Counted from the first letter of the stretch, positions 378 to 63,900 are shown. The stretch is 64,000 nt of DNA from Amoebophrya sp. A120 (GCA_905178155.1 CAJINV010000003.1:11697105-11761104); one strand, 5' to 3'. Notes: generated from the sequence alone by a model not told the origin. Program-made: numbers and translations.

Positions 378-2034
378 CCGTCCGTCCCCTGCACCAGGAG
401 TCCGCAACACTGCTCCACCTTTTCCAAGTCACACTTCTCGAGCACCGCTGCCCCGTATGCATTGCAAATAATATGTGGTCTGAGTCGGGGAAGAGTCTGA
501 GTAGAGCTTGTGATGCTAGGTCTGGTCGACACAAAAATTTGTCTTGCATAAAGCAGGATAAGTAAACAAGCATTATTGAGAAGCTCGAGAAGAAGCAGTG
601 CTCATACTTTACAACTTGTGATGCTACTAGTGCGACTTACGGTTGTTCGACAAATAATTCCACACCTTCCGGCTCAGCAATCAACATGCAGAAGCAGTAT
701 CACAAACCTCCGCAATGTTCCAGTAGCCCAGAGCCAGATCGAAGCTATTTGCGTTTCATACCTCTTGGAACAGGTCGATGCACCGAGTTTCCGGGTCGTA
801 GATGAGCGCGCCGTTGACGCGCGGCAGACTTTTCGCGTCGTAGTCGCCAATCGACCGGGTGGGCTGCAGTCCGCCCAGCCGCCCGTTGTGTGGCGGCCCG
901 TATGAACTGCAAATATGTCTGGGTCTGGAAAAAAGCAGCGCTTGTCATGCACATTTTGCATGAGCCATAACGTCTGTGATGCATGCCCTAGTATCACAGA
1001 TTTGTTGAGGGCTTTGTGATGCCTGTACTGCATGAGAGATGCCCGCTTCTCCGTGTAGCAAAAAGTGGGCCTCTTTTGCTGGTCACGCAATAGAAATTCG
1101 GTGTAGAATCCAAAGGCAGCATCACAAGTTGCAACCTTCCAGACCCAGACATATTTGCATTTGATAGCCCGTCGATGTCTGCGATCCCAGACCGCTCCAT
1201 CCGCACGCGCTCGGCCGGGCACCGGCAGGACTTATGAAGTGTAAAAATGTCTGGGTCTGGAAGAATGCAACTTGTGATGCGCATTTCAGAACACACAAAA
1301 ATCTCTCATGCATAGGTAGCAAAAGCTGCTCACTTTCTGTCACCAAAAGGGGGGATTTGTCATGCGGGTTCGGCATTGCGGAAGCTTCTCGAAACCTGTG
1401 ATGCTAGAGCTTCCATGACGGACCTTCTGTGTCATGCAGAAACAGCATGACTCTTCCAGACCCAGACATTTTTACAGTTGATAGGACTGCTCCAGGGACA
1501 AGTGATTCAGGCGGCCGAGCCGCAACTTCTTCCGGTTCCCCCGCGCCCGCGTGGAGGTGCAGTCACTCACGGGCACGTACTTGGCGTCGCAGTCCCCGAC
1601 CTGGGCGCAATACATGTAGCGGCCCCAGCACAGCACCGCGTTCATGCAGGTGCCGGACGAAATTTTTTCTTGCCACAGCGTGAATTCGCACTGCTCGGCG
1701 GCTTTCTTCATGGCCTCGGCCGGCTTGCTGGCACGTGTTCGAAAGTCGTGCAAGACCAAGTTCGGGAAGAATTCGGCCACCGTGGTCGCGGCCTGCGCGC
1801 CGTCGTGGCCGTCACAGACGCCCGAGATGAAGAGGTCGATCCTTTTTTCGTCCCCTACCGCATTGAAAGAGCCGCGAGTTGAAAAAATACGGTCTTCGTT
1901 TCCCCGGTGCGGCGGATGCACCATGTCCTCTCGTTTCTTCCCGGCCGCTGCTTTGTCGTTGGCACCGCTGTTTGACGTTTTCTTCTTTCCTTCGTCATCA
2001 GATTCGCTATCGTCGCTGTGCTCCTTATCGTTGT
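378..2034 (-). CDS. Protein phosphatase 2C (PPM family), multi-exon, ends uncertain
   Basis: Motifs GVCDGHDG, SSGTC and CAQVGDC in ORF 1472-2083. Removing elements 1233-1483, 901-1166 and 456-760 gives the continuous frame LSLEQSCRCPAERVRMERSG...GRLGGLQPTRSIGD...LIYDPE...LLVQGTDG, i.e. the remaining PP2C motifs. Confidence 0.88.
456..760. mobile_element. Degenerate family A introner-like element
   Basis: Ends tatgcattgcaaata... and ...tttgcgtttcata. Flanks ccccg/cctct (decayed DR). Removal joins LFQE to AAVLEK in frame. Confidence 0.65.
901..1166. mobile_element. Family A introner (TIR about 30 bp, 5-bp DR gcccg)
   Basis: tatgaactgcaaatatgtctgggtctggaa ... ttccagacccagacatatttgcatttgata. 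DR at 896-900 and 1167-1171. Removal gives DIDG-PPHNGRLGG. Confidence 0.92.
1233..1483. mobile_element. Family A introner (DR ggact)
   Basis: Family A TIR pair. DR at 1228-1232 and 1484-1488. Removal gives LEQS-CRCPAER. Confidence 0.92.
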
Positions 2035-2625
2035 ATGCATTGCAAAAGAAAAAGTATCGTTTATACTTTAATACGAAAATCAAAATGAATTGCCTCGTCC
2101 CAAAGTAGGTCTCACAGAAGGAAAACTCAACCTTCTCCTCATGCAGGCTCAGGTAGAAAAGCAGACCTTTGAATCATTGTCAACAAGCGGGACTACAATT
2201 TCTTGTGCGAGATGAACGCTATTTTGTACTTTTGCCCAGGATACGTCCCCCGCAGAATCGTCCGGCAAAGGCGGCAGATCGCGCCGCTTCTGGGTGAACT
2301 TGCGGCACAAGTACAAAAAATTCATATTCTCGCCCTCGCGTGCCAGTTGATGCATTGCAAACGCATCTGGGTGTCGCTCTGGAACTCAGTGCAGCAGACA
2401 CAGAAGTTTATTCTCAACATGCCAGATTATTTCTATGCCTCACGAAAACAAGAATACAGGGATCACAAGTTCTGCCAGGCCTTGGCAATGTTCGTTCTCA
2501 ATGAGGAGGAGGAGGACACCTCTATAGTCAGCTTCTAACTACTAAGCTACTCTCTCTTTAAGCTAACCATAGGACATGTTTCTGAGGACGACTAGCCGAG
2601 CTGGAGATAGAGTTGTAAATGGTGG

Positions 2626-2723
2626 ACAAATAGCCCTGCCAGGTGTACTAAACCTAGGACTTCAGTGCCACCCGTGAACAAATAGCCCTGCTAGGTGTAC
2701 AAAACCTAGGACTTCAGTGCCAC
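2626..2723. repeat. Direct repeat, 2 x 46 bp, period 52
   Basis: acaaatagccctgc(c/t)aggtgtac(t/a)aaacctaggacttcagtgccac at 2626 and 2678. Confidence 0.85.
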
Positions 2724-4049
2724 GCTGTCTTCTTTTCTCCGCTCAAGGCCCGTCCCCGAGTCTGTACTGCGATCACCCCACTCGATCCAGCTGCTGCATG
2801 CTCAGTGGCTCTCTGGACCTGTTTATATCTGGACGCTTTTACCGGAGAGTTTTGGACTTGTGGCGCTGGAGCGACAACCGGTTGGTGACCTAAGGCCCGT
2901 ACCCGGAGTGCCCAGACGCCACACCTGTTCGACGAGAGGATGTGAGCCACTGCGCGAGGACGTAGTAATGAGGGGCAACCGCAACAGAGTTACCTGTAGG
3001 CTGAAGCCCGCAGCGAGGGTTCGTCGATCCCCCCGCTGTTGTGGTGAACGAGTACAAAGAGTTCTACCTGCGCCCGGCCGGGGCCATCGGCATAGGTTGC
3101 ACTTGGTTTTGCAACCAGCAAGAGTGTTTTCCGGTTTATTTTCCTCTCAGGACACGAAGTACTCATAACGAAACTACGAAAGAACAGATGTGGCGCCTCC
3201 CCCGGACAGACGCAGGAGCCGCTCCCCTAGTAGAAGTCTTACGCGGGCTGCGTCTGCCACGACCTGCTTTGTGTTTTGGGTGCTGCGCTTCCGTGTAGTA
3301 CTTCTTTCTAAATTTTTTTTTCTTGCGCTCTATTTTTACGCGACGGGACCTAGAAATTTTGAGTGGGCATCAACTGTACTCTTCTTTGCGATTTTTGTCC
3401 TTTTCTTCTTTGACGATGGTGCCCGTATTTGGCGTCTTCGTACTTTTCGGTGTGGAAACTCAGACGGAAAACTTCTCTGTGTGTTCGTACTCCTGCTGCG
3501 GCCATCCCGGATGCCGTGCGTCACCAGTGTGATTGGGAATGCGTAGTTCCGCTCCTCCCGCACCAACACCCTACGCACCCCGCTCGCGTGACGCACTTTC
3601 TCCTTCCTGCTCGCTGCTATGTTGGAGCTTTTTACTGAGGTGTATCTGTTTCGTTTTTTGTTTTTATATTTTTATTTCTTCGGTGTGAACATGAACTGCT
3701 ATGGTGTGAAAGATGTTTGCGCGTGTCCTGAATGACTGATCATAACTGAAAGAAACCTACTGGGAGGAGTACTACTGGAAGACTACACGTACATAAAATA
3801 TCTAGCGCGATCAAGTGACTATACTACTCCGTACTCTTTACTTCGGTCCGGGAAACCTGCGCATCTTTGCGAACTTCGGTGGGGAAGTACCTTCCCCGAC
3901 TGCCCCAACACCGGGGTGCTTCTTCGTCTGCTGCAAGTCGCTCCGAGTTTCGTAGTTCTGTGTCGCCTTTTTCGCCAGACCGGCAAACCGTCGCACATTT
4001 TCTGGTTGCACTTGTTGCGGGCGCGCCCGCCTTGATTCACCTCCTCCTC

Positions 4050-7000
4050 CTAGACCATGTCCACCCACGGCACTAGCTTCACTAGCGCCGTGTCATTCGG
4101 CACGACCGAGTCCAATTTCAACTGCTCCCTTTCTTCTTTCGGCTGCTCCGATGTGTCCCGCTGCGCGTTCTCCTGGATCGCTTTGCGTAGCGATTCTGGT
4201 AGTATGCCCGGTCGGTTTTCAGATGTCATGTCAAGATAGGTCAGTATTTTGCGTGTCATTTGAGTGCTTTTTAGAATTTCGCATCGCTGTTTCATACTTG
4301 TTATTTTTGGCAGGCCGAAGCATTTCTCTCTTGCTTCTACAAAATCTGCTTGCTGGCATTCATACAAAAGGTGGTCGGTCGTTGGCAGAACTTTCTTGTC
4401 ACAGTATGGGCATTTCATGCCTGTTAGATGTGGCCTCCTTGTGTTGTGTTCGAGCTTTCCCATTCCTAGGAATCCTTTTTTCCCTGTCCCCATCCATAAT
4501 GCAAACATAATAGTATCTAGATACTGCGGACGTTTTTCTTCTGTTTTGTATTCCCGCATGCAAAATGCTCGTCGCTTCAAGTATGGGTGACATTTTGTGC
4601 TGCCTAGAAACTTGTTTTTCGTTCTTTCCTGTACTAGCCGGCGGAGCAGGTTCACTGTTGTGTCCTTTTTGTAGAAGGGCCTCTGTAGTTCTTTTCCCTT
4701 GTTGTGGTCTAAGCCTCTTGTAGCCATCGCGTCTGCAAAATCATTATAGTAGTTCGCCAGATGTGAGGGCGTCCACCTAAAGATGAACTCACACCCTGGC
4801 GCGGAAACTTTTTCTAGCTCTTCTAGCTCTCGCACGAGCTTGATGATCATGATATTACTCCGGTCCCGGAAAGCCTTCACTGCCTGCAGGAGCCCGTTGT
4901 TGTCAATGAAGAAGACGTGCTTGGTTATTGTCTTCAGCCACTGCGGATCTGAGTGGGCCCGTAACGTTTTGATGTGGTTCAGCAGGCCGTAGCACTCCCC
5001 GTCAAACGAGTCCGGGTCAGTCGTCTCCTCTGGATCACCTATTTCTGACTCAATGCAGCAACAACTTACCACGATCGGCGCAGGGCGTCGCCCCTGCTGT
5101 GCAGTGCAGTGCCAAGAGGCACCGCCCCCGCTCCCTCGTTCGAACTTTGCTCCCCCGTCTGTGTACGACACCACGGTCCGCTTCTCGCGCAATAGGGAGC
5201 GCGTTACCTGTTCGTTCATTTGCGAGATATGTAGCCTTACCTTATCCTTCTCCTCACGATCTCCCAGCCTGCCGGGATCTGCTACATCGAAGTCTGCGGC
5301 GACCTGACGCATCGGCAGCACCGTGATCCTGTTCACACCCCTCCAGTACTGCCGCCCTACCTGTAAACTTTTTGCTGCTTGTGCTAAGTCACGATATTCC
5401 TCACTCAGTGCTATTCTATTCATTCTGCATGACCAGGCTTCGTTGCACCGCCCCCAGAGCGGGTTTTCGTGTGTTGTAGTTGCGCATATCGGGTCCTCCA
5501 AGTCCCACGTTGCAAAAATGTCTGGAAGCTCGTCCGGCTCGATCTCGCTCTCCTCCTGTGTCTGGGGAGCAACGTGCTGCCCCTCGCCTGCTGCTGCGAC
5601 CACTGGAGCGGATTCCGACTCGGGGGGGACAGGGGGAAACGCTTCGGCGTCCCGTGACATTTCCGGCGATGGCCGCGCGGGCGGAATGTCCGCCTCGTCT
5701 AGGTAGAAGGGCCACAAGTCCAGAGCGGCGCCTTTGTAAAACACCATTAGAGCGTCCGTCAGAATGTTGTCGATTGGGCTCGCGAGGCCCGTGGCGCTGT
5801 ACATCAGGAAGTTGCTGCAGTTCCGCGGGATATTCAGGCGCTGTTTTATCTGAGATGCAAATGTCTTTGCTACTTCTTTCTTTGCTGAAGTCGTGAAAAA
5901 AGGAAACGGCACGACTGAGATCGACGTGATCGCAGGGAATGCAAATGCGTTCATGAGCATTATCTTTTGCTTGATGCTTTGTCCTCGTTCTGACTGCAAA
6001 AAGCGGAACTCATGCATAATTTTCTTTTGAACTTCGTCCGCGTGCGAGCGGAAGGTGTATGCTCCGTCGTAGATGCAGCCCAGGCTCTTCCCCTTTCCCG
6101 CTCTGGATTTTTGGTTCGGCTTGCTGCTATCGTACTCGATCTGCTTGTGTTTGAGCTCGTCAAAAAATATCTTCTTCGTGAGGCCGATCTTTTTCATCAT
6201 GCTGGGCACCTGCTCACCTTCAGGCGTGTTTTTGGCGACGACCGTGATATCGTCCGAGTACGCACTGAGTACGCGTATTGCTTGCAGTTCGAGCACCTCC
6301 ATGATCAAGTCGATCGTGTATCCGTTCCATACAGACCCGGAAAGCGGAGAGCCCTGCGGTTTGCCGACCCACAGAGCGTACTCCTTCCCTCCCGGTAGTT
6401 TTATTTTTCTCCACTTCATGAAGCCAGCAATTGCCGCACATTGTTGTGCTGGGCAAACCTTGGCCTTCAGTGCTCCTAAAGTCTCCACGTGGCAGACGAT
6501 ATCAAAACCAGAACAACAGTCATTCAGAACTACCTTACAGCTTACCTCCCCAAAAATCCCATCCACAATCACCGCCGTGGAGAATTCCTTCCCATGTGCT
6601 TGCCGATATGCGTTGCTGAAAGCCGGCTGAACCTTCGGGCCAAGACCCTTGTACTCCGAGCCCTCCCACCGGTGGCCATCCAGCCAAAGGCTCTGGCGCC
6701 TGTCATAAATATTGTCTAAGATCTTGCTATACACACTGCACAGTGATACGGGACGCATTAACATTTCCGTGTAGCAGCCTCCTGCCACTTTCGGCACTGC
6801 GGCCATCGAGATCAAGCGTCCTTGAGCCGGATATGATGCATGATAGACGTATGCTTCAAAACATTGAAAGAGAGCCCAGCGTAGAAGCGGCCCCGCATTT
6901 CGCACCATCTCATGCGTGGTGAGACAGTGGCCGGGGGTGCGCCCCGGTTGCAGTTTCCTTATTGCCGCCTCTACTTCCAAGAAACTCAACGGCCAGGCGC

Positions 7001-9524
7001 TGCCGCCATCTTTCTCCGCCTTCTCCTTCAAGTAGTCCTGCTCTGCTACCGTCCAGGCCCGTTCTACCTCGTCCTTGGATGCGGGCCGTGTTTCGAACTC
7101 TTCGTATACCTTGAATGGTTTACTTCTGAAAAAGTTTTTTATTATTCGACAGATTTCGGAGGGGACTCGCGTGGCCTCCTCCTCTGTGGGCACGTCGTTC
7201 ACCTTCTTGGCCTTCAAAATCTTGTTCGCTTCGTCCAAGGACTTGGCCTCGATGCCTGTAGTGCGAAGTAGATATTTCCGGCGAGACTCGAAGTCCCCCC
7301 GCACCATGACTTTCGGAAACCCCGTCGACCACCGGTTCGCACCCTTCCGCTCCTTAACCCCCTGCCAATCCAGGTCCTTCACGACGGCGGCCACCTCCTC
7401 GTCGACCGCAGGCGCAGGTGCAGTGGGGGGGGCTTTCCCCGCGGGCCGTTTGTTTGTGCCTGTTTTACTCTCTACGTTCTTGCCTGCTTTCTTGCCCTTT
7501 TTCCTGCCTATGTACTTCAGAGTTTCCAGGGCCGCGCCATGTATTGCATGCCTAATTTTTGTCAGGCATTCGTCTGCCTTTGCTGTGCTCATCTGCCTAT
7601 TTGGCTGCCAGTCCTCAGGTCTTCGCAGACCTTCTGTCCAATAGTCCATGCCTGTACCAGCGCCCGCATCACACATCTTTTCTGGCATCACAAAAAGTTC
7701 TTTTACTTTCTTATCAGCTTCTTCTGCATATGCCTTCCACTGTTCTTCTGTGGTTTCTTCAAACAAATACTTTACTCGTTCTTCCTGCTCAAACTCTAGG
7801 GGGGCGCTGAATTCCCAGTCACAGAGCTCCAGAAAGTTGTCCTTCAGCCGCAGCGTGGAGGATAACATATCATGGTCGCTCGCATTCATCTTGTGCACTG
7901 CTGTATTCTCGCTACTGAAAAATCTAGACTCAAACATAATCATGTCCGGCGATGTGAAGGAGCCGTTCTCGTGTCGGGTGGGCAGGCGTTGCACGTTGGC
8001 CTGCTGCCAGTTCCCATCGTGCTCCTCGCTCGGCCCCAGTAGGCTCGCGACCTTTGTACCTGCTGCATTTGAAGTAAAGTTTAAATTTGAACCTGTGGGC
8101 TCCCAATCCCGGTGCCGCGCGTTCAAGTCACCCATGACTATAATAGGCAACGCCATCTCTGGGTGAAGCGGAAGAGAGGACGAGGAGAAGTTGGCTGGGG
8201 GGCTGTACACCCCTCCGACCATTACTGGGTGGCCTAGCAGCCTTGCTGTTGTTACTATTTGCTCGTCGTTGTTGATGGACTCGCACATTCCGATCTCAGG
8301 CAGCCCTAGCTCCTCTCCTAGCAGCAGCATCGAGCTCTTCACATTCGTTGCGGCATCGGTAGGACAGAGGACGACGTGGAAGCCGCGCCGGCGTGCCTTC
8401 TCGATCAGCCTGCTCTTGTCACCGGCAAGGCTGGCCACGTGCGTCTCGCTGAGGTGGATGATACGGATGTGAGGATGCTGGTCCAGGAACAGCATCAACT
8501 CGTCAGTTGCAGTTAGAAGGCGGGCGGCCTCCTCCCTGGTGAGGTTGCCCTGCTTGTTCTTGTTCAAGGTGTGCGCGCTCTGCATGTTCCAGGTGGCGAC
8601 CCCTATCGTGTCGTAGATGGGCGGGCGGCTGCTCTTCGCCTTTGCGACTATGTACTTCGTCGCTTTGCCGGCATATCTTTCTGCGTCTATGTGCTTCTGC
8701 ATCTCGTCTGACGTTGCCCCGTTCTCATGCATGTATTTTATGTGCGATATCCGGTCTATTACTTCTGCACTACATTCAGGGCACTGTGTCGGCACGTTTG
8801 CCGACTTCCCTTGTCGGGCCGCTGTGCTTCTGCAAACTTCTGCATGCGCTAAAACTTCCTTCTCGCAATCTGAGTTCATGACCTTGCAAACCCCACAAAC
8901 AAACTTACCATCATTCGCCGACCTGTGCATTCGGTTTTTATGTATTATTTCACTTATTCTATAGTCACGCTCCCCTTCCTCGTCCTTGAAGTCGAAATCA
9001 AAAACATTACCTGCTATTACTCTACCCACCTCGTCCTTCTTATCGTTCCATTTGTTACAAAATTCTAAGTGGTGCGCGTGCTTGTCCGGATCTCGGGACG
9101 TGTTTCCACATCCGCATATGTACACCCTCTTCTGCGATTTCACCTTGCTGTACGACTCCAGGGCCTTGTCCACGCGCGCCTTGACCTTTTGGCGCTTCAG
9201 GTCGTTGCTTGGCAGAAACCTTGCGGCCACTGCCCCGTCAGGTGCTGGCGCCGCCTCCATCGGAACCTCCTTGCAAATCACCACTGGCCTCGGTATTCCT
9301 CCCACCTCCTCCAGAAACTCGCCGATCTCTGCCGGGCGCGCAGCCCATTGCGCGCCTTGGGGCTCCTGCTGTACCCCTCCTGTTGTGGATCTCCCCCTAC
9401 TCAAAGGTGAGACAGGATCGACACGCACAACCCCGGAGGAGCAGGATACTGCCCCCCCCTGTGTTCTTTGTTTTTTCATTATGCCTACTTCGGCTGCCAA
9501 AAATCTACATACTAAATTCATCAT
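4050..9524 (-). mobile_element. Non-LTR retrotransposon (LINE, I/ingi-like) single ORF, 1824 aa
   Basis: N-terminal Cys/His fingers. APE motifs TWNMQS, LSETH, VYSPP, GDLNA, SDH. RT motifs RPVSL, GKPQGSPLS, AYSDDI. RNase H motifs YTDGG, FIDN, WTPSH, NDFADAMA. C-terminal CPYC...HLLYEC. Element boundaries and TSD not identified. Confidence 0.95.
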
Positions 9525-11699
9525 TTTCTCTTCTTCAGCATTTCAATTCAGTAGTGTCAGTCAGAATAGGGCGCAGGTTGGTGCAGTGGTAGTGGTCAGT
9601 GTTTAGTCAGTCCACTGCACGCCTGAACTGTTTCCCTTGTCACGCCTCTCAACTTCTCAGTTCGTTCTCGGCCCCGGTTCGTAGCCAGTTTGGCTTCTTT
9701 CACGCCGTGTACCCCCGCAAACTGCGCGTCGTTCCTTTTCTCCGGTTTCTCCTTCCCGTCAACGCTGTACCGACCGCCCCTGCACCGCGGAGAGTCTCCT
9801 TCGCCACCACGTTCAGACGCCGTCCCCGACCGCCCCCGCACCGTGGCTAGCCTCTTTCTCCACCACGTTCGTCTGCCTCTTGGAGGAGGAGATTTGATCT
9901 CAACTCCTTCGCCCCACTACCAGGGGGGATCTCCGTTCCCGGTTCCTCCTCGCTGCTGCTGGAGGAGATTCCCACTCTGCCTCCCTTCGTAGCTACCTGA
10001 AGAAAGTTTTTAGTTTTTACGTGGAGGCTCTGTTGCTTTGTATCCTGCTAAGAAAAACTTATCATTCCATTACTGAGTGCGTTTTTCGGCTCTTACCGCG
10101 CCCACACTACATACACCAGAAGCAATATGAAGTAACATTGTGCCCTTTTGCGCTTACACCGCTGGCATCTCATACAGCAAAAGAGATATTTTGTACTTTA
10201 TTTGCTTCTTTCCCGAGGTCGCTATCCTGCTCCTTCCATTTTGTTTTGTTTGCCACTTCATTCTTTTCTTACTAGGGGGCCGGAATTTTTGTTCTGTACT
10301 TCTAACTCTAGTGCTTGCGCTAACTTTACTCGTCGCTGTTGGTAAAAGAAAATTGAAACGGAGGGCAAAGAATCCGTAATTATGTTCTACTCTGTTCCTG
10401 GCCCTAGATAACTACGTATGGGTCCTGCCGTTCGCCCGCAACACGACAGCTGCCCCGGTTTTCCCCCTACGACCCACCCTACCCAATCTGTGTGGGGGAG
10501 CTCGCCCATGCATCTTTGTTTGCGAGCCACTGACCTTCTTTCTCGGTGTGCGCGTGCTTGTCAGTGCTCATCCTAGGGAGTCGCATGAGCAATTCTTTTG
10601 AGCTGGGGCTGCCCTTGTGCTCTTGGGCGGTTTTAGTTCTGCGTAGAGTCGCGCACACTGTTACTCATGACCTTCTATCTGCCCCGGCGAGGTTCACCTC
10701 CCCCAGCTGTGGGATTCTGCGGCGGCTGCGACAGGCGAGATCGTAGGAGCGTATGCAGTTCCGTATGCAGTGGGCTTTGCCTCTTCGTCCACGATAAAAC
10801 GCGTAAAAGTATCTGATTCCGCTCACGCCTCTTCTTTGGCGTCGGGCTCGGTGCACGTCTGGCCGGTCCGACTGCTGTCGTGCTGCGACCGCTTCCTCGG
10901 TCCCGGTATATTCTTTATTAGTTATGTCCTGGTCGCGCTAGATAGATTTATTTCGAAAGCCGCATTTTGATCCTGTTATGATTATCTTACCTGTTTTCGA
11001 TCAAGGAAGGACGACCAGTATGCGATGCCATCTTGTTTCTTTCTTTCCCCACGCCGTTTTTTCGCCGCCGCAAAAAGGATCGGATCCAGCCCACGCTGGG
11101 CACACAAAAAAGATCTTCTCACTTGATCCTGCCACTCTTGTGGTGCTTCTTCTACTTCTCGCCGTTGCCAAACAGACCAGTTTTTCAGATAAAACTGACA
11201 AAAAACTTTGGCTAGAAGCAGACTGCCCTTCGCTGTACTGCTACCCCTAGACCTTAGCCCTTTCTCTATTCGCATCATTCTTTGCGTAACTACAAGCAAG
11301 AGCTTCTCACTTGCGCATTTGTTGCAGTGTCTTGTAAAAGTCGTACCATCGCGACTTAGCTACAAACATAAATTCGAGAACATGTACAAGATTCACAAAA
11401 TTGGTAGTATGCTGTTCGCAGGGCTGCGCAAGCACAAGTAGTAAAAGAGATCTAGAGAGCTCTCAGTTTGAATAACGACAGAAAGCAGGATAAAACACAT
11501 CCAATGACAATTTGGGTTCGAATCTCAACAAGAGCGATTGCGATAGGGAAACGCCCGAAATAGCGTGTAGCAAATTTGCGCAACCGCGGACCACGAGGGC
11601 GAAAGGCCGTCGCAGCGAGCCTTGCTAGTCCGTCACCGAAGTTTGCGGCACGCAACAAGCCCGCCGCCGGTACTAAGGCGTAGACTGACAACGAAAAGG

Positions 11700-12830
11700 A
11701 GAGGCAACGAACCAACCGCGCACCCCCGGCCCTCGCCCCAGCCAAGAAAAAAGCGGTCGGCGCGGGGCTGCCTGGGGCCGATTTGTGGCGGGCCGGCGTT
11801 GCTTTGGCTGGCCGAGCCCATTCATTGGGGCGCCGGGCCGCCAAGGTAAGAAGGCGGGCCGGCGCGCGGGGCGGGCAGGAAGACCGGCCGGCCTGGGTCC
11901 CTCCACCCAGAGTAAAGGGGGCCCTGCCTGGAAACCGCGCGCGGGCCCACCTGGGAAACAGGGCGCCGGGCGAGTCTCGCCGGCCGCGCGCGCCACCGGC
12001 CCCTTTCGGCAACAAGGCTCCCGGGGCCTTGGCGCCGCGATTGCGGGGAGAACGAAGGCAGGAGGGCGCACCCGCAGAAACAAATGGCGGCGCTGATGCG
12101 AGAGACGGGCCCCTCCGGTCCGCATATCTCTGCCGCTTCCGCCGGCGCGCCTCGGTCGTGTTCGAGCGGCAACGCGATGGCCACCTCCGGCCCCGCTTCA
12201 TCCTCGCGCGCCCTTCTGTCCGAGGGGCCGCCGAGGTAGGGCCGCCTGCGGCCTTCCAAGGGGGCCAGGACCTGTAGGAGCGGTAGGGCGCCGCCGGCCC
12301 CGGGGCGGTGCGCCGCGCGGGGCCGGCCCGGCCCGGCCCATCGCAGAAGGGCGCGCGCGCCGCGCGCAACCAATGTTCCAGCCCTACGGCGCCAGCAGGG
12401 GGGCCGGGCCCGCGGGCCCGCCCACACTTGCCAGCAGCAGCGGAGCGGGGGGATTCGGGCGGGCCCGCCTGGAGCTCTCGGGCTGGGCCCTGCCCGATTT
12501 CTTGTTTCCTGCCCTCCCCATCCCCGCTAGAGTCGCAAATGCCCCGCGCGCCCTGCCCCCTCGCTTTCCTGGAAGCTCCCGCGGTCTTGTTTGATCTGCA
12601 TCGGCAACCAGATCACGCGCCGCATATCAGGCGGGCACTCCGCTCCCGGCGTCCGCGCCGGGCCGCTCTATCGCGTCGGCTAAATAGATCACCAAGAGGG
12701 GGGGCAGGCGTGGGCCCGGCCCCGGCCTCGCCAACACCACGGCGCCGCGCGCGTCCAGGATCTGGCCCGGCTCAAAATCTGGCAGGCGAACTCGAGGCGC
12801 GCCCCCCTTGGCTACAGGCTCTGCATCGGG
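11700..12830. other. Very GC-rich tract of unknown nature (possible decayed insertion)
   Basis: Abrupt GC shift. Long ORFs in several frames encode only Arg/Pro/Gly/Ala-rich low-complexity sequence. Confidence 0.35.
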
Positions 12831-13111
12831 GCGGGGTGCGAAGCGTTTTCGAACCACCATCGACGTCCGCCATCCACTACCCTGCTGCGCTCCTTCGTGC
12901 AGACCCGACTACCTCCAGACAAGTCTGGAAGGCAAACTGAGCCTTGAGCCTTCGTTCTCAATGAGGAATCAATTTTCATCGTGGCCAAGAATTATAACCA
13001 AGCATTTCTTGCAGCTCCTCATGCAAAACAGATTTTATTCCTGGTTCACCCGCATCACAAGTTCGCACTCAATTATTGCCAGACTACCCAGACATGGTTC
13101 CAATGCGTATA

Positions 13112-14143
13112 GGTCTCCTGCGCGCAGTTTCCCGAGCTTCTTGTCCCACAGAAAAAGACAGCAGGTAGCGCATATTTGTAAAAATGGAAAAAAGATGAAC
13201 ACACAGAAAAACAAAAATCTGCACTGCGGATCCGAATAAACTTAAACAGCGTGCGATGGGCTCGCCCATGCTAGATTTTTTGTTATTTATTTTTTGCATT
13301 TATAGGAATGTGCCCTGCCTACTTTTTTCTGTATGATACTTCACTTCCAGCGCCGTCTTCGGCTCTGTCACGCCTCTATGCATTGCAAATCTTTCTGGGT
13401 CTGGATAAAAGTACGCGATTTGTCATGCTAAGCGGGCTTCTGTTCGGCATAAACGCAACACAAGTTTGTCGGGTCTTATTGCGAATTCCGATTCTTTCGT
13501 GTTTCGCATTGCAACTCCCTTCGTTCCAGTGCGACAAGCACAAGAAAGCTGGCCCACCCTCTTCATGAAATACAGGTGATCTACTTGGCGTCACGTAATT
13601 ATTATACTCACATTCTGCACCACAATTCTTCGGGCCCAGACAGTGTACAACATGTACTTCCAATGCATAGCTCCCGGCTAGAGGATTCTCAGTCTCGTCC
13701 ACTTCGATGCTCCGAAACTCTTTGACATCTACCCGGCACTTCCGCTTTTTCAACACCGGCTCCTTATTTAGTACCGCTGGCAGTTTGTTCGAGTTGGCCA
13801 GGTCGAGGGCCTTCAGCGCTGCGGCCGTCAACGGGAGTCCGTGCGAGGCGGGCTTGGGCTGGTCGGCCCGCTCTGGCTTGGGCTTGATTTTGTTCGCCTC
13901 GCTCTTGTGCGCCTCGCTCAAACGCTTGTTTGCAGCTGCAAACGCGTCCCGGTCGAAGGGGGCGATCGGCGGCTTAGCGAGGATCGGCGGCTTAGCGATC
14001 AGCGGCTTAGCGATCGGCAGCTTAGCGATCGGCGGCTTAGTAATCGTCAGGCCGAACGGGTTACTGCTCATGTTCTGACTTGCGGGACCTTGCGGCAGAG
14101 GCCGAAGCCGCTTGGCAGCGGGGGTCGGGTTGTCTTCGGGCAT
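13112..14143 (-). CDS. Hypothetical protein, 5' exons (AKPPI repeats), 3' end unresolved
   Basis: ORF from MPEDNPT. Removing 13377-13669 and 13142-13338 continues the frame LAGS-VTEPKTALEVK-LGKLRAGD. A 15-bp coding repeat lies at about 13962-14045. Confidence 0.6.
13142..13338. mobile_element. Family D introner, degenerate (DR cttct/cttca)
   Basis: Ends tgtcccacagaaaaagacagcagg ... ccctgcctacttttttctgtatgata, homologous to 24275-24445. Confidence 0.7.
13377..13669. mobile_element. Family A introner, degenerate
   Basis: Left end tatgcattgcaaatctttctgggtctgg, right end cccagac...caatgcata. Removal keeps the frame. Confidence 0.7.
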
Positions 14144-20598: not shown

Positions 20599-21014
20599 AC
20601 TCCTTCACCATGATGACATGCGGCGAAGTTTTGTGCCATCTAAGGAGAAAACACAACATATGAAGCGCCTTTTATTTCTTCCGTGCTGTCGAGCATGCCA
20701 AAAGACTGCTTCATCGACGAAGTTGAGACTGAGACAGTAGCTTTTTCTCGCGATACACGGCACTTTCGTTGCACTGGTTCACGCGGAGCAGGCTGGAATA
20801 TGACAATGCATAACTTCTCCGTTCCTCATTTATTTCATGCAAAATACAAAGCCGACCCTTTTCCCTCTGGCACTGCTTGCATGACAGGTTTCGGAAGGAG
20901 CCGAAACGCCACTAGACTGTTGATCGGTCGCGAATTTTTCATGCAAAAGCTGCACTCACTTGTGTAGTTGCTGCTTATGCAATTTAAATGACAGCGAGGA
21001 GGAATTCTGCACTC

Positions 21015-24269: not shown

Positions 24270-24274
24270 CTTAT

Positions 24275-24445
24275 TATCCCAGAGAAAAAAGCTGGCAGGG
24301 CATATTTGTAATGCAAAAATACATACACACTAAAATTTGTCATGGGTGGCCCCATAGCGTGCTGTTTCGCATATGCAATACAGATTTTTTTGTGTGCTTA
24401 TTTTTGCATTGCAAATATGCCCTGCCGGCTTTTTTCTGTGTGATA
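24275..24445. mobile_element. Family D introner (TIR about 46 bp, DR cttat)
   Basis: tatcccagagaaaaaagctggcagggcatatttgtaatgc ... gcattgcaaatatgccctgccggcttttttctgtgtgata. Perfect DR. Frame restoration could not be shown here. Confidence 0.82.
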
Positions 24446-47110: not shown

Positions 47111-47166
47111 GCATAGGAGAAGACAATTTGAGAAATCAACGGAACCATCCTATCCACTAGTACTCT

Positions 47167-54917: not shown

Positions 54918-57900
54918 TCAGAAGTGTTTCTTTTTGTTCGTGCTCTTCTCGTAGCCTTTACTCTCCCGCGACCTCCGTCTCTTCCCACCGCCCTCCCCGC
55001 GCGACTCGGGTCTTAGTCGTGCCTGCAAAATCTCGAATTCCTCTCGCCGGTTCGCCTCGAAGGACTCGATGTAGGGTGTGTTCCCCGTTCCCATCAGCGA
55101 TCCGGACGTTTTCTGCGACAGCAACGCGGACTGCGATCCATCTTCCTTCTTTTTCTTCTTCTGCGCGCTTTGCTCCTGCTCACCCGGAGTAGTCCCGGCG
55201 AGCGCTCCTTCCAGCTGTTGTCCCTGGTTTACTTCCCGGTTTTGTTGGCTCTTTGAACTCGGGGGACGGAGTTTTTCTAGTTCTTCCTCTCTCTTCCGCT
55301 TTATCTCCTCCTGCTCTTCGTAGTAAACTCCGTGGTCGATGTCGAGTAAGTCCATGACGTCGCAGCCGAAGCAGTTTGCCAACGTCACGAACGTGTCCAG
55401 AATCCCGATCGGGGACAGCGTATGCACTACAAAAATGTTTGGGTCTGGAAGTCTACAAGTTTGTCTTGCTTGGCTAGCATGACTCTTAAGTCTGTCATGC
55501 ACGTTACCCAAAAGCCACAGCTTTCAGACATGCAAAAACGCAGTTTGTCATGCTGGATAGACAACACCTATCAACTCAGTAGAAATTTGTCATGCTCAGC
55601 CGTCATTTGTAGCGTCCTCATGATTCGCCCATCAGCATCACAGGTTTATTCCAGACCCAGACATATTTGCCGTTCATACAGCGTCAACCTTGACAACCCC
55701 CTCACCGGGGTGACGTCGTCCGGCTTCACCCACAGATCCGGAATCCCCGCGGACACGGGGTTCAACCCGATAATCGCCAGCTTCGCAATTTCCGCGATGT
55801 GCTTGCTCCGGCAGAGCAGTTCCACCGGATGCGCACTCGGGTCGTAGATCTGCGCGAATTTCTTCTTGTCAATCAGCAGGCTCCGCAACCGGTCGGTCAG
55901 ATACAGAATGTAAATGTACAACTCCTCCACACCCAGTCTCCCCGCCCCCAACGCGAAGATGTAGCGCGCGGTGTACTGGAAACACCGGTACAGAAACGTT
56001 CTTCTCCGCTTCAGCCGCACGACGTGCAGATAGCCCCGGTTGAACACGTGGCGGGACTTGTGGCACTTGAACACCTCCCTGGCGGATTCGGAGTAGCAGA
56101 AGGAAAGCAAGTTCGATTCCTCGTGGGTGTCGAGGGTGAGTTCGTCCTCTTCCAGCTCCTCCTCCTCGGTTGTACTAGAGGAATGCGTCGCAGTCTGTTG
56201 CTCCTCGCCGCTCGTGGCATTCAGGTTGTCGTCTCCCGAGTTGCTGTTTTGCGCCACCGCGATCGCGACCACAGCGGCGGGAAGCTCAGGCCCATCTTCT
56301 ACCTGGCCGCCTTGCTGTTTCCTGCCTGCTTCTTTTGTTGCGCCGCTTTGGGGGCGACTTGACGTTTTCTTGCCTGCTTGTTCATCTGCTTGTTCTCCCG
56401 CATTTTCTCTCTCCGCCGTGCCCGGTTTCGAATTCTCATTCAGTTGCTCCAAGCCAAAATTGTCCGGAATGTCTTCCCCATCTACCGCCTCCTTGGCCGG
56501 AAATTGACTATTGTCCTGCGCCACCACCGCGACCGTCGCGGCGTTTGGAAACAAACCTCCATTATTACCATTTCGCTCTCTTCTCATTTGCCTTTTCCGG
56601 TCCCGCATGAACCACGGCCCCTCGTCCTCCGATTCGAAAATCCGACTTCTCGCCGGGGCAGCCAACCGGTCCTGTATCCCGAGTAAAAACGTACCCACGC
56701 CAGGGTTGTAATGCAGATTTGCAAAGACAGGAAGACTTGTAATGCGGTCCCCATGAGAGCTATTTCCAATCGTGTTTTGGAATTTGTGATGCTGTGAACA
56801 GGATGAGCAGATGAATCTGTGATGCCGCTGCACTTGCTGACCTGCACTACACTGCGTAGTGCAACTTGTCATGCGTGACTCACAAAACTCCTAGGTTTGT
56901 GTTGCAAAATCACCATCCTAAGTCTGGTGTGGGTACGTTTTTACTCAGGATACCCTGGTACTCGAACTCATCCTCGCTGTCGTCGTCGGGCGGTAGACTG
57001 AACCGCACCCGGTCGACCGGATTTTCCCACCCGTCCGCCGTGTCGACGGAACTGTCGCTGTAGCAACTGCTGTCGTCCTGTAAGATCCTCCTCCTCCGGG
57101 TTTTGCTGGTGACTTGGAACAAGTTCGACTCGTCCGTCTTGTACGCGCGCTGGCACTGCGCGGCGTAAATGTCGGAGATTTCGAATTTCAGCTTCTCCAG
57201 CCGGTTATGCTCCGCCTCCATGCGCTTCGACCCCTGCAGCCGAACCTTGTCGAACCACAGGTCCTTGCCCCGTTTCTCCTCCAATTTTCGCAACGACAGG
57301 CCTCGCAAGTCTCCCTGTCGGTTCTGGTTCTCCTTCAGCTGCTTTTTCCGTTGCAGCGCCGCGGCCGACGACCCCCCGTCCCCTGGACTGTTGCCCGCGT
57401 ACCGCGCGGCTGTCTTCTGCGCGTACTCCCGCCGGTAGTCCAGGCAGTCCTGCAATTCCATTCTTAAATTCACCCGGGAGAAAAGCGGGGCAATGTCTTT
57501 CATCGCGAGAATTGGCTCGGCGGGCAGCTCGGCGGGCGTCAACCTGTACATGTACCGCTTCACGCGGAGCTGCTCGTCGGTGATGGCATCCAGGTCGTCC
57601 TCGTCCCCTCCGTTCCCACCACCGCCGAACGCCACCAGCGCGCCCTCCGCGCCGCTCGCATTGCGGCTCGCGTTGGCGGAGGAAGAGCTCGTGTGGCCGC
57701 GGGGTTTCGGGAAGACGGGGTCGATGAAGTTCCCCTGGCTAGTTACTTCGTAGAAATTCTGTTTGTCGAACCGAAACCGGCCGACCAGGCCGCACACCCC
57801 GTTCCAGTTTGTGTCGGGAACCACCAGGGAGCCCGGAGCGTTGTCGTTCTTTGGCTTATTATTCGCTGACGCGGAAGATGTACCACCACCTCCTGCAGCA

Positions 57901-60900
57901 TTTCCGCCAGGAGCAGGTGAGGACCCACTAGTTGTACCGGCGACGACAGACACGGTTTTCTTTTCCCGCTCCGGGGAGTTCGGTGGTGGCTCGTCCCCCT
58001 GTGTCAAAAACGTTTTGTTCGGCGAGTTCTTGTTCGGAGATGTTGGTGGTGGTCTATTCATCTGGGAGCTGTCCTGGATCGCAGCCGAAGCAGCGCCCGC
58101 CGCGAAACCGCTGTTGTTCCCCAACATCTTCATAGCCCCCACTCTTGGCACTGGCAGCGGCGCGGAGCCGAAGAACGCTAACGCAGCTTCCTCTCCCTTC
58201 TCGTGGACCCACCAATCGAGGAATTCCTTGCCGTACCGGCCGGCTAAAAAAGGTAAGAGCGAAATTCCGTTGTGGACCCAAAACACGTCCGGCGCGCCGA
58301 TGGTCTTCATCATGTGCTCGTGGGTGCTGGAGGCCCACACCTGCAACTCGTGCTCGCCCTTCAATTTCTCCTGCTTCGAGCCCCCACCGCCCTGTTGCTC
58401 GTTGTTGCCGTCGTCGTCGTCATCCATGACCGCCATGCCCGCGGGACGTAAGGGTGCGCCCTTTACCGTCACCGTCATGAAGAGCAGGTTCGAGTACGAG
58501 TCGTGCACCTCATCCGAGCTGTTCCTCGTGTGCAACCCCCGCGGCGTCCACTGCTCGTCTTCGCGCTTCACCTTCTCCCTCACTAATCCGGCGACCTTCT
58601 CCGTGTTGGACAAAAATTTCTTCCGGTTTTGCTTCACCCGCGCCTGCTGCATCTTCGCGTTCTCCAGGCCGGACTGCTCGGAAAAGCTGCTCGACTGCAA
58701 GTCCCCGAACCGGTTCGGCTTCTTCGCCTCCGCGGCGACCTGTCCCAGTTGCGCCGCCTGCGCTTGGACCATCGCGCGGTAGCGCCCAAAAACCTCCGCC
58801 TGCCGCAGCATCCAGGTTTTTTCCAACGGTTTCTTCCACTTGCACGGCCCGTTGCTCACAAACGTGTAGTCGTACCGTTCCGGTCTCGCGGGCCGCCGGT
58901 GCAACCGGTTCCAGATCACCGTGATTCGCGGGGCGAGCAGGAGTTGTTCCTCCTCCTCTTCCGCAGAGGAAACTCCCCCACTCATCTGCGCAGCCCGTTG
59001 ACCACCCGCTGTGTTGACCGCAACGATCGCGCTCTTCTCCGTCCCCGTTTGCTCCCCGCTGCTCTCGTTCGCGGAGAAGTATCGCACAGAAAAAAGGTGA
59101 CTATACAGGACACATCTGTTGTATATGCAAACGCAAACACACAGAAAACTGTCATGCACGTGCCCATAGCTTGCTATTTGCAATGGGGTATGTAGTTGTT
59201 TTCATCTTGATTTTGCAGTACAAACACTAGTATGGTGCTATGCTACCTCTATTCTGCGAGATATGGAGCTACTGCTGCTGCTCTCTTCCGGCTCGGGCTC
59301 GACGTAGCGGTAATCATCGCCGAAAAGCAATAACTTCCGCTCGTTTCCCCAAGCCGGTTTTTGCGTCCAAGCGAAGTCCCGGCCCCCTCCGAACACCGGT
59401 TCTTTGGGGGGTTTTTTACTCCTCCGTTTCGCCGCTTTGCTGTCGTCCTGCTCGTAAAACTTCAACTCCCGTTGCCGCCTCTTCTGACTCTGCCGGGTCT
59501 GCAGCACCAGCCCGGTGTCTGCGCGCGGCCACCGCAGATCGGGAACTTCTTCCGGGAGGACCAACGCTTCCGTCACGTCGTCCTCGTCGGACAAGTCCCG
59601 GTGGTCCGTGGGGAGCAGGTGCAACAAAAAGTTTTTCCCCTTGCCCTCTAAAGGCATGTCCCGGCGGAACTTCACACCTTCGAGGTTCTCTCTTCCGAGC
59701 TTCTTTTCCGACCGGGAGTAGGTTTTTACCCTCTTCGCCGGGTTGAAAGCGACGACGTTCTGCGCCTGCATTTTCCGCAAGGTCGCCGCGTCCTCCTGCA
59801 TAAGAATGGACTCCACGGTGGAGAGTTCGGGGACCGCGTTGGCGTGCATGAGGAAATCACTCCTGTTCGACTTGCTGCTCTGTTTCGTGTCCGGCCGGTC
59901 GGTCTTTTGTGATTCCGGTCGGCTGGACTGGGAGGTTTTCAGCTCTTTGTCTTTCTTCTTCTTGTTAACATCCTTGTCCTTCGCGGGGGAGGGAGACTGA
60001 GACTGCTGTCCCAGCGCGAGGCGCGCGGTCGTGCCCGGGGAGGTCTGCCTTGCTGCGGGGAGCAGGTCCTCAATCTGGATGGAAACGAGGCCCTGGAGGG
60101 AGAGGAGATTTTCATTTTTTGGAAAAATATATATAAAGCAGGGGTTTGGTGGGGTCGCAGGGGTTATTTTTGTCTAGCGCCGGAAGAGCAGAACCGCGGG
60201 AGCCAAAGCCCTCATGTCGAAGGCTGCGCGGTTTGGCCAATTTGGTATCCTACCCCGATTCCCCTAATTTCATACCCTCACCCGATTCGCCTTCTTTTGT
60301 ACCCTACCCCGATTTGGCTAATTTTGTACCCTCCCCGAATTTTGTACCCTATCCCGATCTCCCTAATTTTGTGCCCTAGCCCGATTTGGCAAATTCAGTA
60401 CCCTCGCCGAATTGTGTACCCCATCCCGATTTGCCTAATTTTGTACCCTAGCCCGATTTGGCAAATTCTGCACCCTCCTCGAGTTTTATACCCTACCCCG
60501 GGCAATTTTGTAAGTGTGTGCCCTGCCCCGAAAGGCCTCCGCTTGCGCCCCCGGGAAACACGGAAACCGGGAAACGCGGAAACCGGGAAACGCGGAAACC
60601 GGGAAACACGGAAACCGGGAAACACGGAAACCGGGAAACACGGAAACCGGGAAACACGGAACCCGGGAAACACGGAACCCGGGAAACACGGAACCCGGGA
60701 AACACGGAACCCGGNNNNNNNNNNNNNNNNNNNNNNNNNNNNNNNNNNNNNNNNNNNNNNNNNNNNNNNNNNNNNNNNNNNNNNNNNNNNNNNNNNNNNN
60801 NNNNNNNNNNNNNNNNNNNNNNNNNNNNNNNNNNNNNNNNNNNNNNNNNNNNNNNNNNNNNNNNNNNNNNNNNNNNNNNNNNNNNNNNNNNNNNNNNNNN

Positions 60901-63900
60901 NNNNNNNNNNNNNNNNNNNNNNNNNNNNNNNNNNNNNNNNNNNNNNNNNNNNNNNNNNNNNNNNNNNNNNNNNNNNNNNNNNNNNNNNNNNNNNNNNNNN
61001 NNNNNNNNNNNNNNNNNNNNNNNNNNNNNNNNNNNNNNNNNNNNNNNNNNNNNNNNNNNNNNNNNNNNNNNNNNNNNNNNNNNNNNNNNNNNNNNNNNNN
61101 NNNNNNNNNNNNNNNNNNNNNNNNNNNNNNNNNNNNNNNNNNNNNNNNNNNNNNNNNNNNNNNNNNNNNNNNNNNNNNNNNNNNNNNNNNNNNNNNNNNN
61201 NNNNNNNNNNNNNNNNNNNNNNNNNNNNNNNNNNNNNNNNNNNNNNNNNNNNNNNNNNNNNNNNNNNNNNNNNNNNNNNNNNNNNNNNNNNNNNNNNNNN
61301 NNNNNNNNNNNNNNNNNNNNNNNNNNNNNNNNNNNNNNNNNNNNNNNNNNNNNNNNNNNNNNNNNNNNNNNNNNNNNNNNNNNNNNNNNNNNNNNNNNNN
61401 NNNNNNNNNNNNNNNNNNNNNNNNNNNNNNNNNNNNNNNNNNNNNNNNNNNNNNNNNNNNNNNNNNNNNNNNNNNNNNNNNNNNNNNNNNNNNNNNNNNN
61501 NNNNNNNNNNNNNNNNNNNNNNNNNNNNNNNNNNNNNNNNNNNNNNNNNNNNNNNNNNNNNNNNNNNNNNNNNNNNNNNNNNNNNNNNNNNNNNNNNNNN
61601 NNNNNNNNNNNNNNNNNNNNNNNNNNNNNNNNNNNNNNNNNNNNNNNNNNNNNNNNNNNNNNNNNNNNNNNNNNNNNNNNNNNNNNNNNNNNNNNNNNNN
61701 NNNNNNNTGGTCCATCCGCCTCAGTAAAGGGAGCATCGCCCTCAAGCTCCTCCGCAAGAAAGTCCAAAGCAAACAAGATCCCGCCCCCGTGTTGCACGCG
61801 TGTGGTCCATCCGCCCCAATGTTTTGCGCGTGTGGTCCATCCGCCCCAGTGAGTGTTTTGCGCCTGTGGTCCATCCGCCCCAGCGAGCGTTCTTTTGCGA
61901 GTGAGGTCCGTCCGCCCCAGTAGAGGGAGCATCGCGCCCGAGATTCCGCGACGAGCGACCTCGCGCCCTACCCGCCGCCCGGCTTGCGAGCGGCATTGGC
62001 AACAAGGCCGGCCCCTCGCCAGCGCCCGACAGCACTGCACTCGGGGCGCCTTCGCAACACAGTCGCCAAGTGTGGCGAGAAGGGTTCTGCGAGTGAGGTC
62101 CACCCGCCCAAGTAAAGGGAGTACCGCGCTCAAGCTTTAGATTCCGCGATGAGCGACCTCGCGCCCTACCCCGCGCGCCGTCGCCCCTCCTTCCCGTCCT
62201 CGCCTAGTTCTTCTCTTCCCCTCCCGCCCCTGCGACCGCACTGCTTTTCCTGGAGATTCCTTCCCCCGAGCTAGTAATTTACATTTAATTCAGTTCATCT
62301 TGTTTCAAGACCTGATTTCTCAATGATGAATGGTCATCACCATGACCATCTTGAATCAGCATCAACCCCTAAAAAGCAATGACACTACTACAACTTAAAT
62401 AATACCCTCGGCGCATCCCTTGAGTCCCCATATGGCACCGTGCGTTTTCGCAGTCTTCTTCTCGGCAACTGCTTCAGCTGGTCCTGATCGCCCTCGATCC
62501 GCAGCACCATGGTGATTTGCGATCTCTTGTCGCCTCGCGCAGCCACGTTCCACGAGGTCACGCCCGTCATCCCGGTGCCCCGAAACGCGATCAACCTCTG
62601 CGCCGCCACGTGGAACCACTCGTTGCAGTTTTGCACACAGACTTTGCTCCCCATGCAAAACCCCGCCGCAAAGTTCTCCTTGTGCAACACCGCGAATCGG
62701 CGGGAAAACTCGCGCACCCGGTCTCTCAGAGTGGATTTCTTGCCGCAGTTATTACAATGAAAAATGCCCCCACCCCCGAACTTGAAAGCATTTGTATTGC
62801 AAACCTTTCCAAATGAAACATTCGCCCTCTTGCATGTATCAGCATCACAGATTTCCGATCGTGAATAGCAAAAATTTGCATTGCAAAAGATCCCAGCAAG
62901 AGCGGCGCTTGTCATGCAAGCGATGCGAAACACGACTAGAATCTGCATCAGAAAGATTCATACTCCTTTCGTGCATGACAAAAAGTTTTCATTTGGAAAC
63001 TTCGCATCACAAATTTTTGCAACTTTGAGGGTGGGGGGAACTTTTCACTGTAATAGCAGTGTTTTTTCAGGAAAACGACCCACTGCCGGACGGAGTATCA
63101 AATGTAAAAATGTCTGGGTCTGGAAGAATGCAACTTGTCATGCTAAATCTGAAGCAGGCAAAAAATTGTGGTGCATGATTGCCAAAAGTCGTCCAGTTTT
63201 GACCAAGTCGGGAGGCAGTTTCTCATGCAGGATAGGCATGAGAAGGATCGCACAGAATTTGTCATGCTAGGTCCTGCATTCCAGACCTCATGGGTCATGG
63301 AAAAGCTGCATGAAAAATCGCGCATTCTTCCAGACCCAGACATTTTTACATTTGATACGGAGAGCTCCTGGACGATCCCCAGCGCCGCCTTCTTTTTCTT
63401 CGGCATCTTCGGCACGTCCGCCTCCTTGCCTTCCTTTTTCGCCTTCTGCCGGGCCCGCATGGCCGCCGCCTCCGCGGCCGCCCGCTCCTCCCCGTCCCCC
63501 TCGAAACCCGGATCCAGCATCGGCCACGAGCCGAATTCGCACAAATACTGTCCCGCGTACGCAAGGCGCTGGCGCCCGAAGTAGTCCGGCGGAATCTTCT
63601 CCCTGCCCGCGCGCACCGCCCGGAGCAACGCGGCGCACTCCGGGGTCGGACCCGTGGACCCCCCGGGGGACGCCATTTTCCGGCCCTGTTGCACGTTTCT
63701 GGACGGGGAGGGGAGATTTGTCAATACCGGCGAAGTCGCCGTGCCAGCATGCGCAGCTTTCGTCGGAGAAGACAACTGCTGGTTTTCTGCGTCTTTATCT
63801 CCGACAGCGTTGTTTGTGAACCCGAAGACCGCGTTCGCGTGGTACCCGGCGTTCATTTTCACCGTCGACAGAGCTAAGCGCGCTTTTTTCGACGGCTTGA

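Follow-up and report, generated by a model that had tools for sequence, protein, structure and literature searches.

Introner elements of the Amoebophrya A120 type in a 64-kb window: most likely removal at the RNA level and a lead towards a fixed cutting register

Protein-coding sequence in a window of 64,000 nucleotides (CAJINV010000003.1:11697105-11761104, assembly GCA_905178155.1; the whole stretch of DNA analysed) is interrupted by elements which are short non-coding transposon copies, namely introner elements of the Amoebophrya A120 type inside coding exons. They are most likely removed at the RNA level, because a sequencing run that is likely DNA keeps them at full depth whereas contigs that are likely RNA lack them. 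The cut likely falls at a fixed register, one base before the TAT at one end of the element and four bases after the ATA at the other, which is reported as a lead, not as a result. The introner system itself has already been published; the fixed register is the new lead. At stake is the removal of tens of thousands of introns that lack GT-AG ends, in a cell seemingly without the small nuclear RNA (snRNA) U1. If the register is indeed fixed, splice sites described as "highly variable" would obey a single rule, from which the exact ends of each intron and a candidate branch base could be predicted; genome annotation could be corrected, and it would be clear why the elements can insert into coding sequence in both orientations at no cost.

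Elements in coding sequence

For element detection, inverted TAT…ATA pairs were scanned without regard to flanking repeats, and the later list was obtained from looser scans and RNA-guided inspection. The repeat-blind scan yielded 28 pairs, 14 of which had a perfect 5-mer direct repeat; perfect direct repeats of 3, 4, 6, 7 or 8 bp were absent among the 28. In each of five block-shuffled versions, 6-12 pairs and no perfect repeat were found. The original prediction had listed at least 23 elements with terminal inverted repeats (TIRs) and sizes of about 150-350 bp; 30 were tabulated here (Table 1), 17 with a perfect 5-bp repeat and 13 with an imperfect one, and sizes were 150-340 bp except for three enlarged by nested inserts (510, 522 and 1,213 bp). 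The 14 repeats named previously (13 plus cggag) were all recovered at element ends, three more were perfect (cacgg at 20532, tggaa at 20799, gccag at 25022), and the 17 perfect repeats all differ in sequence, as had been claimed for every site. The five families proposed previously come close to the BLASTN grouping of 31 candidates, which gave six multi-copy families (10, 5, 3, 3, 2 and 2 members) and six single copies; family members are 67-88% identical and occur in both orientations. A GT-AG pair was found in 0 of 30 elements in any of six registers (transcript sense). The claimed absence of such signals therefore holds for the elements but not window-wide, as five ordinary GT-AG introns are predicted in conserved genes.

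Both element ends share TAT-N7-AAAA. Counted from the cut given below, T, A and T lie at +2 to +4, and A occurs at +12 to +16 in 22-28 of 29 elements; T+2 and A+3 are present in 29/29 and A-7 in 29/29, and positions -19 to -15 are T-rich. The terminal 25 nt have about 16-25 expected pairs end to end in 22 of 29 elements. The TIRs, the target duplication of fixed length that differs per site and the presence of both orientations are those of miniature inverted-repeat transposable elements (MITEs). The Amoebophrya host, the TAT-N7-AAA inverted repeat, a border repeat within 3-5 nt and families of ~240 nt without coding capacity are those of A120-type introners. No transposase was detected among 18 long open reading frames (ORFs) of the window in a Pfam scan, and an Rfam search of the window gave 0 hits.

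The window is assigned on sequence grounds to Amoebophrya with A120-type elements, because an exon of its short-chain dehydrogenase (SDR) gene has its best match in Amoebophrya sp. A25 (62% identity, E 7e-50; the next matches are fungal, ~40%) and the end motif is the TAT of A120, not the TTA of A25. For A120, introners are described with an inverted repeat starting from TAT, followed by seven looser bases and at least three A, with a length of about 240 nt and in many families (Farhat et al. 2021, PMC7789003). RNAseq supports 66,565 introns, >60% of them non-canonical; the border repeats measure 3-5 nt (5 bp in the legend of Fig. S19), the border position "remains unknown", and so does the mechanism (PMC7789003). 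Other Amoebophrya strains are canonical (PMC12005148). The earlier assignment to Amoebophrya-type introners with an open removal mechanism agrees with this description.

Removal of the elements

Four public runs were aligned to positions 12800-30200, and the evidence on removal refers to that interval. Runs X1-X4 were guessed to be RNA; X1 and X2 stem from one sample and are unevenly covered, with no coverage of an intergenic bin in X1. Run X5, evenly covered at 44-53 in element-free bins, is likely DNA. X1 and X2 each contain one contig of 5.7-5.8 kb composed of exon pieces of a UvrD-like helicase gene. In four of the five gaps between pieces, the contig gap (108, 371, 231 and 310 nt) equals to the base the genomic span minus 2, 5, 3 and 3 elements, respectively, each with one repeat. 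Removal is supported for 13 elements by exact gap length and for three more by one piece end. Eight of eight piece ends at perfect repeats lie at the predicted place, all at the leftmost position. The element at 16462 and the outer element at 24272 were located via the contig, and TAT or ATA was found exactly where implied (background 0.7% per position). Copies in opposite orientation (19459 and 21897) are both removed.

The fifth gap, of 92 nt (18426-19156), has 261 frame-compatible solutions; the possible element at 18867-19155, which would allow registers 2-4, was left out of the register count. A family 5-like element without a matching repeat also lies in this gap (18652-18818).

Reading frames agree with removal. 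The helicase gene without the elements, but with one repeat each, has 3,497 codons without a stop, and the frame is kept at 14/14 junctions. The same applies to the gene at 55-60 kb (1,481 codons after removal, 3/3 junctions), the gene at 62-64 kb (2/2) and the PP2C part (4/4). The original prediction had reported a restored frame at every junction tested except 24275. This exception is no failure: an older element (24272-24793) received a family 4 copy (24275-24445) at its end, with duplication of cttat. Removal of the 527-nt composite gives the 310-nt gap, whereas removal of the inner copy alone gives 661; the 310-nt gap also rules out that 24275 is a 177-nt GT-AG intron.

Template switching by reverse transcriptase is a known artefact in cDNA. 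False introns could arise if the enzyme jumped over the hairpins between direct repeats, and a hairpin with a short direct repeat is a classic substrate for this. It is hardly credible here, as the genes are intact only after removal (the 3,497 codons above), introns with a 2/5 repeat and no stem are missing as well, and depth in unique intron bins (16867-18028) is <1 versus 12-25 in exons.

Precise excision from DNA, either somatic or stage-specific, with transcription of an element-free template, was one of the two routes originally proposed. The transposon anatomy fits it, removal restores the pre-insertion sequence, X1 and X2 are only guessed to be RNA, and X5 has 519 joints beyond those listed. 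However, 8/8 listed contigs of X5 run from exon into elements or across whole ones at a depth of 40-47, similar to element-free bins (44-53), and all 15 listed joints are element-to-element. Depth of X5 over the elements is very high. The zero depth of X1 in an intergenic bin is as RNA would show, and register 1, the mirror register equally expected of a symmetric DNA process, is excluded at 3/3 informative junctions (see below). DNA excision is therefore considered very improbable, and of the two proposed routes, removal at the RNA level is favoured. Run X8 (raw RNA, same species label) reaches a single element end, flanked by foreign sequence and without any exon, and is evidence neither way.

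Hairpin and direct repeat

The boundary had been proposed to be set by the TIR hairpin and the direct repeat. Such a rule seems not to be required, as removal appears to depend neither on a perfect repeat nor on a terminal stem. Expected terminal pairs amount to 0.7 for 16462-16697 (repeat 2/5) and 0.0 for the composite 24272-24793, and the contig lacks both. The composite could have been removed in two steps, yet even its restored outer ends resemble each other no further than TATG. In elements with decayed hairpin or repeat, the TAT/ATA triplets persist in their fixed positions, as does the U-rich stretch at -19 to -15.

Position of the cut

Only imperfect repeats inform on the cut, because a perfect repeat leaves it unplaceable. 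In register 4, four repeat bases are kept from the upstream copy and one from the downstream copy, giving an intron N|TAT…ATA-NNNN|. The registers allowed are only 4 at 19459 (piece end 19454 in X2), 2-4 at 16462 and 4-5 at 16812. The ends that look most canonical at these three junctions (GA-AG, GT-AC and AT-AG) would come from register 1, which is excluded at all three. A count of 17/17 at repeat length 5 was dropped as a control, since it is circular.

The alternative that a relaxed spliceosome chooses variable sites within the repeat, as the published account implies, would make the agreement of the three junctions a matter of chance. The sites are termed variable in the legend of Fig. 3 of PMC7789003, T+2 and A-2 are both enriched among annotated sites, and several frames are used in some introner classes of Polarella (bioRxiv 10.1101/2020.10.14.339549). 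On the other hand, a single register is common to the three junctions, and none of them uses the most GT/AG-like one. Annotated A120 sites (7 large families with 1,994 introns, among 21 of 58 A120 rows) have GT 27%, AT 18%, GC 5%, GA 5%, AG 29% and AC 18% (PMC12130899), and aligner sliding in perfect repeats roughly reproduces this spectrum (predicted GT 31, AT 13, GC 8, GA 8, AG 34 and AC 14%). Variable sites are regarded as improbable. The annotated counts are read as confounded by the aligner and lend register 4 no support. Table S4 of PMC7789003, in which 9/9 top A120 classes are NT-NN, was set aside as support, since A occupies -2 in 8/9 as well, and sliding by the aligner imitates such spectra.

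In register 4, the TAT of the elements falls on +2 to +4 of the normal donor, because the five best-fit GT-AG introns (RPL39, SDR, RFC-like and Fip1/RRM genes) all begin with G-TA-Y; they start with GTAC, GTAT, GTAT, GTAC and GTAT (predicted, two with in-frame alternatives). Introner classes of A25 all start with TT and have an inverted repeat from TTA (PMC7789003), hence they also have T+2 and A+3. We lean towards the broader proposition that every A120-type introner follows N|TAT…ATA-NNNN|; the published diversity of dinucleotides would then be target-site sequence plus aligner sliding, and a machinery without U1, ignoring G+1 and the final AG, would count from the palindromic end even where hairpin or repeat have decayed or elements are nested. 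A fixed register was not found stated in the literature searched; unseen figures, the remaining A120 family rows and supplements may bear on this.

Proposed mechanism

That a relaxed U2-type spliceosome removes the elements from RNA at a fixed register is given slightly better than even chances. A TIR transposase acting in trans would insert the elements and create the 5-bp target duplication; integrase-like A120 family 38 is a candidate mobiliser (PMC12130899). The cut N|UAU…AUA-NNNN| would keep four upstream and one downstream repeat bases, so that exactly one repeat survives whatever its sequence. UAU would substitute for +2 to +4 of the normal G-UAY donor of this genome, and the spliceosome would keep U+2 and A+3 while no longer needing G+1 or the final AG. 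The U-rich arm and AUA would be the reference from which the 3' cut is set; A-7 is a candidate branch nucleotide. The hairpin may bring the ends together in young copies and be dispensable otherwise. Since the ends are palindromic, both signals would be present in either orientation, so that elements could land anywhere in coding sequence without harm. For A120, nearly all spliceosomal proteins and U2, U4, U5 and U6 are reported, and U1 was not found (PMC7789003). The GT…AG ends typical of U2-type introns occur in 0/30 elements. The invariant A-7, a candidate branch site, belongs to the search key.

A second RNA-level route, along lines suggested for non-canonical introns of euglenids and diplonemids, would be structure-guided and non-spliceosomal: an endonuclease would cut at a constant spacing from the terminal stem's base (overhangs of 1 nt 5' and 4 nt 3'), a ligase would join the exons, and a circle would be released. 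Most copies have strong end-to-end stems, no branch consensus is seen, U1 was not found in A120 (PMC7789003), and euglenid introns, in which +4 to +6 pair with -8 to -6, leave as circles (PMC11282704, PMC12621601). A fixed register is equally compatible with such a route. Against it, 16462-16697 and the 24272 composite are removed despite their near-absent terminal pairing, TAT coincides with +2 to +4 of the canonical donor, and the same X1/X2 contig also skips an AG-ending intron at 18426. We consider the nuclease-ligase route unlikely, but it is the main rival.

Several points weigh against fixed-register splicing by the spliceosome. X1 and X2 are guessed to be RNA and possibly come from the window's own strain or source. 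The register is based on three junctions of one transcript in one sample, read from piece ends and not from letters; it is pinned by one junction in one contig (X2), and the other two would agree by chance in about 1 of 6 cases. Register 4 alone predicts 7% AG at 3' ends versus 29% annotated, and the annotated counts, if accurate, would favour mixed registers. The triplets TAT/ATA served as search key, which makes their conservation partly circular. No branch-site consensus is seen at -10 to -8, where the bases vary, and the end-to-end pairing of most elements would hide both splice signals from snRNAs. Finally, the SDR intron at 51992-52171 has a G-TAT start but ends in …AAA-CCGC without ATA.

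Comparison with known systems

The elements are the same as the A120 introners of PMC7789003, with which they share the TAT inverted repeat, the length of ~240 nt, the border repeat, the organization in families, RNAseq support, coexisting GT-AG introns and unidirectional genes. That account gives repeats of 3-5 nt; in the window every repeat measures 5 bp and lies outside TAT…ATA, and the junctions suggest a single register. The A120 TIR-DNA families of Gozashti et al. 2025 (PMC12130899) likewise are of unknown superfamily, measure 150-350 bp and have mostly non-conventional sites, and three of the 21 (of 58) rows have a target-site duplication (TSD) of 5. They differ in that the called TSDs range from 2 to 5 or are lacking and that labels for the splice mechanism vary by family; a common register is not stated in the part of the table covered.

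Introner class 12 of Polarella glacialis shares the 5-nt TSD, and in one of its frames the last TSD base and the first base of the element form the donor (NNAGG), which is the geometry of register 4; it needs G+1 and AG from the TSD, whereas the window elements need neither (bioRxiv 10.1101/2020.10.14.339549). Introns of euglenids and diplonemids share a TIR stem offset from the ends, TSD-like repeats, absence of GT-AG, MITE origin and an unknown machinery (PMC11282704, PMC12621601). Their stem starts from +4/-6 with CAG/CTG, that of the window elements from +2/-5 with TAT/ATA, and the lineages are unrelated; a CAG/CTG stem at +4 to +6/-8 to -6 was not found in the elements, which have TAT/ATA at +2 to +4/-7 to -5. 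Circles have been shown for the euglenid and diplonemid introns (PMC11282704, PMC12621601). Fritillaria borealis provides a precedent for MITE-derived introns without GT-AG handled by a U2 spliceosome, but with AG-AC/AG-AT ends (PMC11282704). The tiny introns of Stentor have a branch A at fixed position -6 without strong consensus, but keep GT-AG (PMC9505925).

Host genes and further features

The window contains 993 N, its GC content is about 53%, and all genes, as modelled here, lie on the minus strand. PP2C and UvrD domains were confirmed by Pfam scan, each on single exons. The product of the helicase gene (14954-33882) has roughly 3,900 residues, and its sole matches are plant proteins with 25-27% identity. 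Annotated spliced proteins of this genome were sought for junction residues and none were found; the helicase query returned two plant UvrD-like proteins only. Domain continuity across the predicted GT-AG introns was seen for RPL39 and SDR.

Table 1. Elements and host gene in the window (positions counted from its first base; X5, run that is likely DNA; contig, exon contig of X1/X2).
Feature	Position	Strand	Remarks
Degenerate element, PP2C gene	456-760	-	repeat 3/5
Family 1 element	901-1166	-	repeat gcccg
Family 1 element	1233-1483	-	repeat ggact
Degenerate element	2034-2243	-	repeat 3/5, weak terminal pairing
Family 4 element	13142-13338	-	repeat 4/5; retained in X5 contig
Family 1 element, degenerate	13377-13669	-	repeat 3/5; retained in X5 contig
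UvrD-like helicase host gene	14954-33882	-	transcript in which element removal was seen
Old element without terminal hairpin	16462-16697	-	repeat 2/5; missing from likely-RNA contig; registers 2-4 allowed
Family 2 element with nested 854-bp insert	16812-18024	-	missing from contig; registers 4-5 allowed
Possible old element	18867-19155	-	contig donor at 19156 (G-TAT); 3' partner ambiguous
Family 1 element	19459-19716	-	repeats cgtcc/tttcc; register 4 only (intron 19455-19717, AT…AC); X2 piece end 19454
Family 5 element	19767-19916	-	repeat 4/5; 3' triplet ATG; in 371-nt gap
Family 2 element	19984-20299	-	repeat tccag; in 371-nt gap
Single-copy element	20532-20755	-	repeat cacgg; 3' triplet ATG; in 371-nt gap; retained in X5 contig
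Family 6 element	20799-21019	-	repeat tggaa
Family 1 element	21897-22136	-	repeat gcttc; orientation opposite to 19459
Family 3 element	22254-22532	-	repeat tcttc; in 231-nt gap
Family 1 element	22657-22908	-	repeat ttgct
Family 1 element	23903-24179	-	repeat agaaa
Composite intron: older element (gtgct/ctgct) with family 4 copy 24275-24445 (cttat) at its end	24272-24793	-	527 nt removed
Family 6 element with insert in one arm	25022-25531	-	repeat gccag
Family 2 element	26116-26455	-	repeat agcac; contig piece ends 26110
Family 1 element	26596-26849	-	repeat tcaat; contig piece starts 26850
Family 2 element, 5' triplet TAC	29250-29570	-	repeat cgttt; contig piece ends 29244
Family 3 element	40090-40313	-	repeat 4/5
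Family 1 element	55421-55678	-	repeat cagcg
Family 3 element	56675-56952	-	repeats tcctg/ccctg, informative for register
Family 4 element	59080-59263	-	repeats agaag/tggag, informative for register
Family 2 element	62750-63055	-	repeat gcagt
Family 1 element	63096-63357	-	repeat cggag; 37-bp perfect arms

Two of the larger elements carry inserts of their own. The 854-bp element nested in 16812-18024 (16959-17812) is flanked by a perfect 5-bp repeat (TTTGT), and its 65-bp arms begin with TTAGGG. This TTA-purine-purine start is similar to the motif of A25, and raised X5 depth suggests several copies. An insert of ~280 bp (25226-25505) appears to split the right arm of 25022-25531, and this element is still missing from the contig.

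In the region 2349-13109, a LINE-like element (long interspersed nuclear element) contains an ORF for reverse transcriptase and endonuclease (4050-9542, minus strand). It is flanked by copies of a 17-bp motif (2491-2507 and 12951-12967) inside an apparently split family 1 element. A join across it ties the exons at 13 kb to the PP2C gene in a frame of 494 codons; several nearby joins are also in frame. The region may be a composite intron of 10.8 kb, with a retroelement possibly landing in introners.

In the SDR gene, the intron at 51992-52171 with its G-TAT start ends in …CGC, lacks AG and a repeat, and has a decayed family 4-like arm only; the A25 orthologue, NNAGILRD, fits a G-TAT start (NNAG|ILRD) for this intron. 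The 1,168-nt GT-AG intron of the same gene contains 2.7 copies of a 143-bp unit with 96% identity (50874-51259). An intergenic array at 41000-42200 is composed of 85-bp and 64-bp units with a palindromic TTTGAAAAGATG…CATCTTTTCAAA motif.

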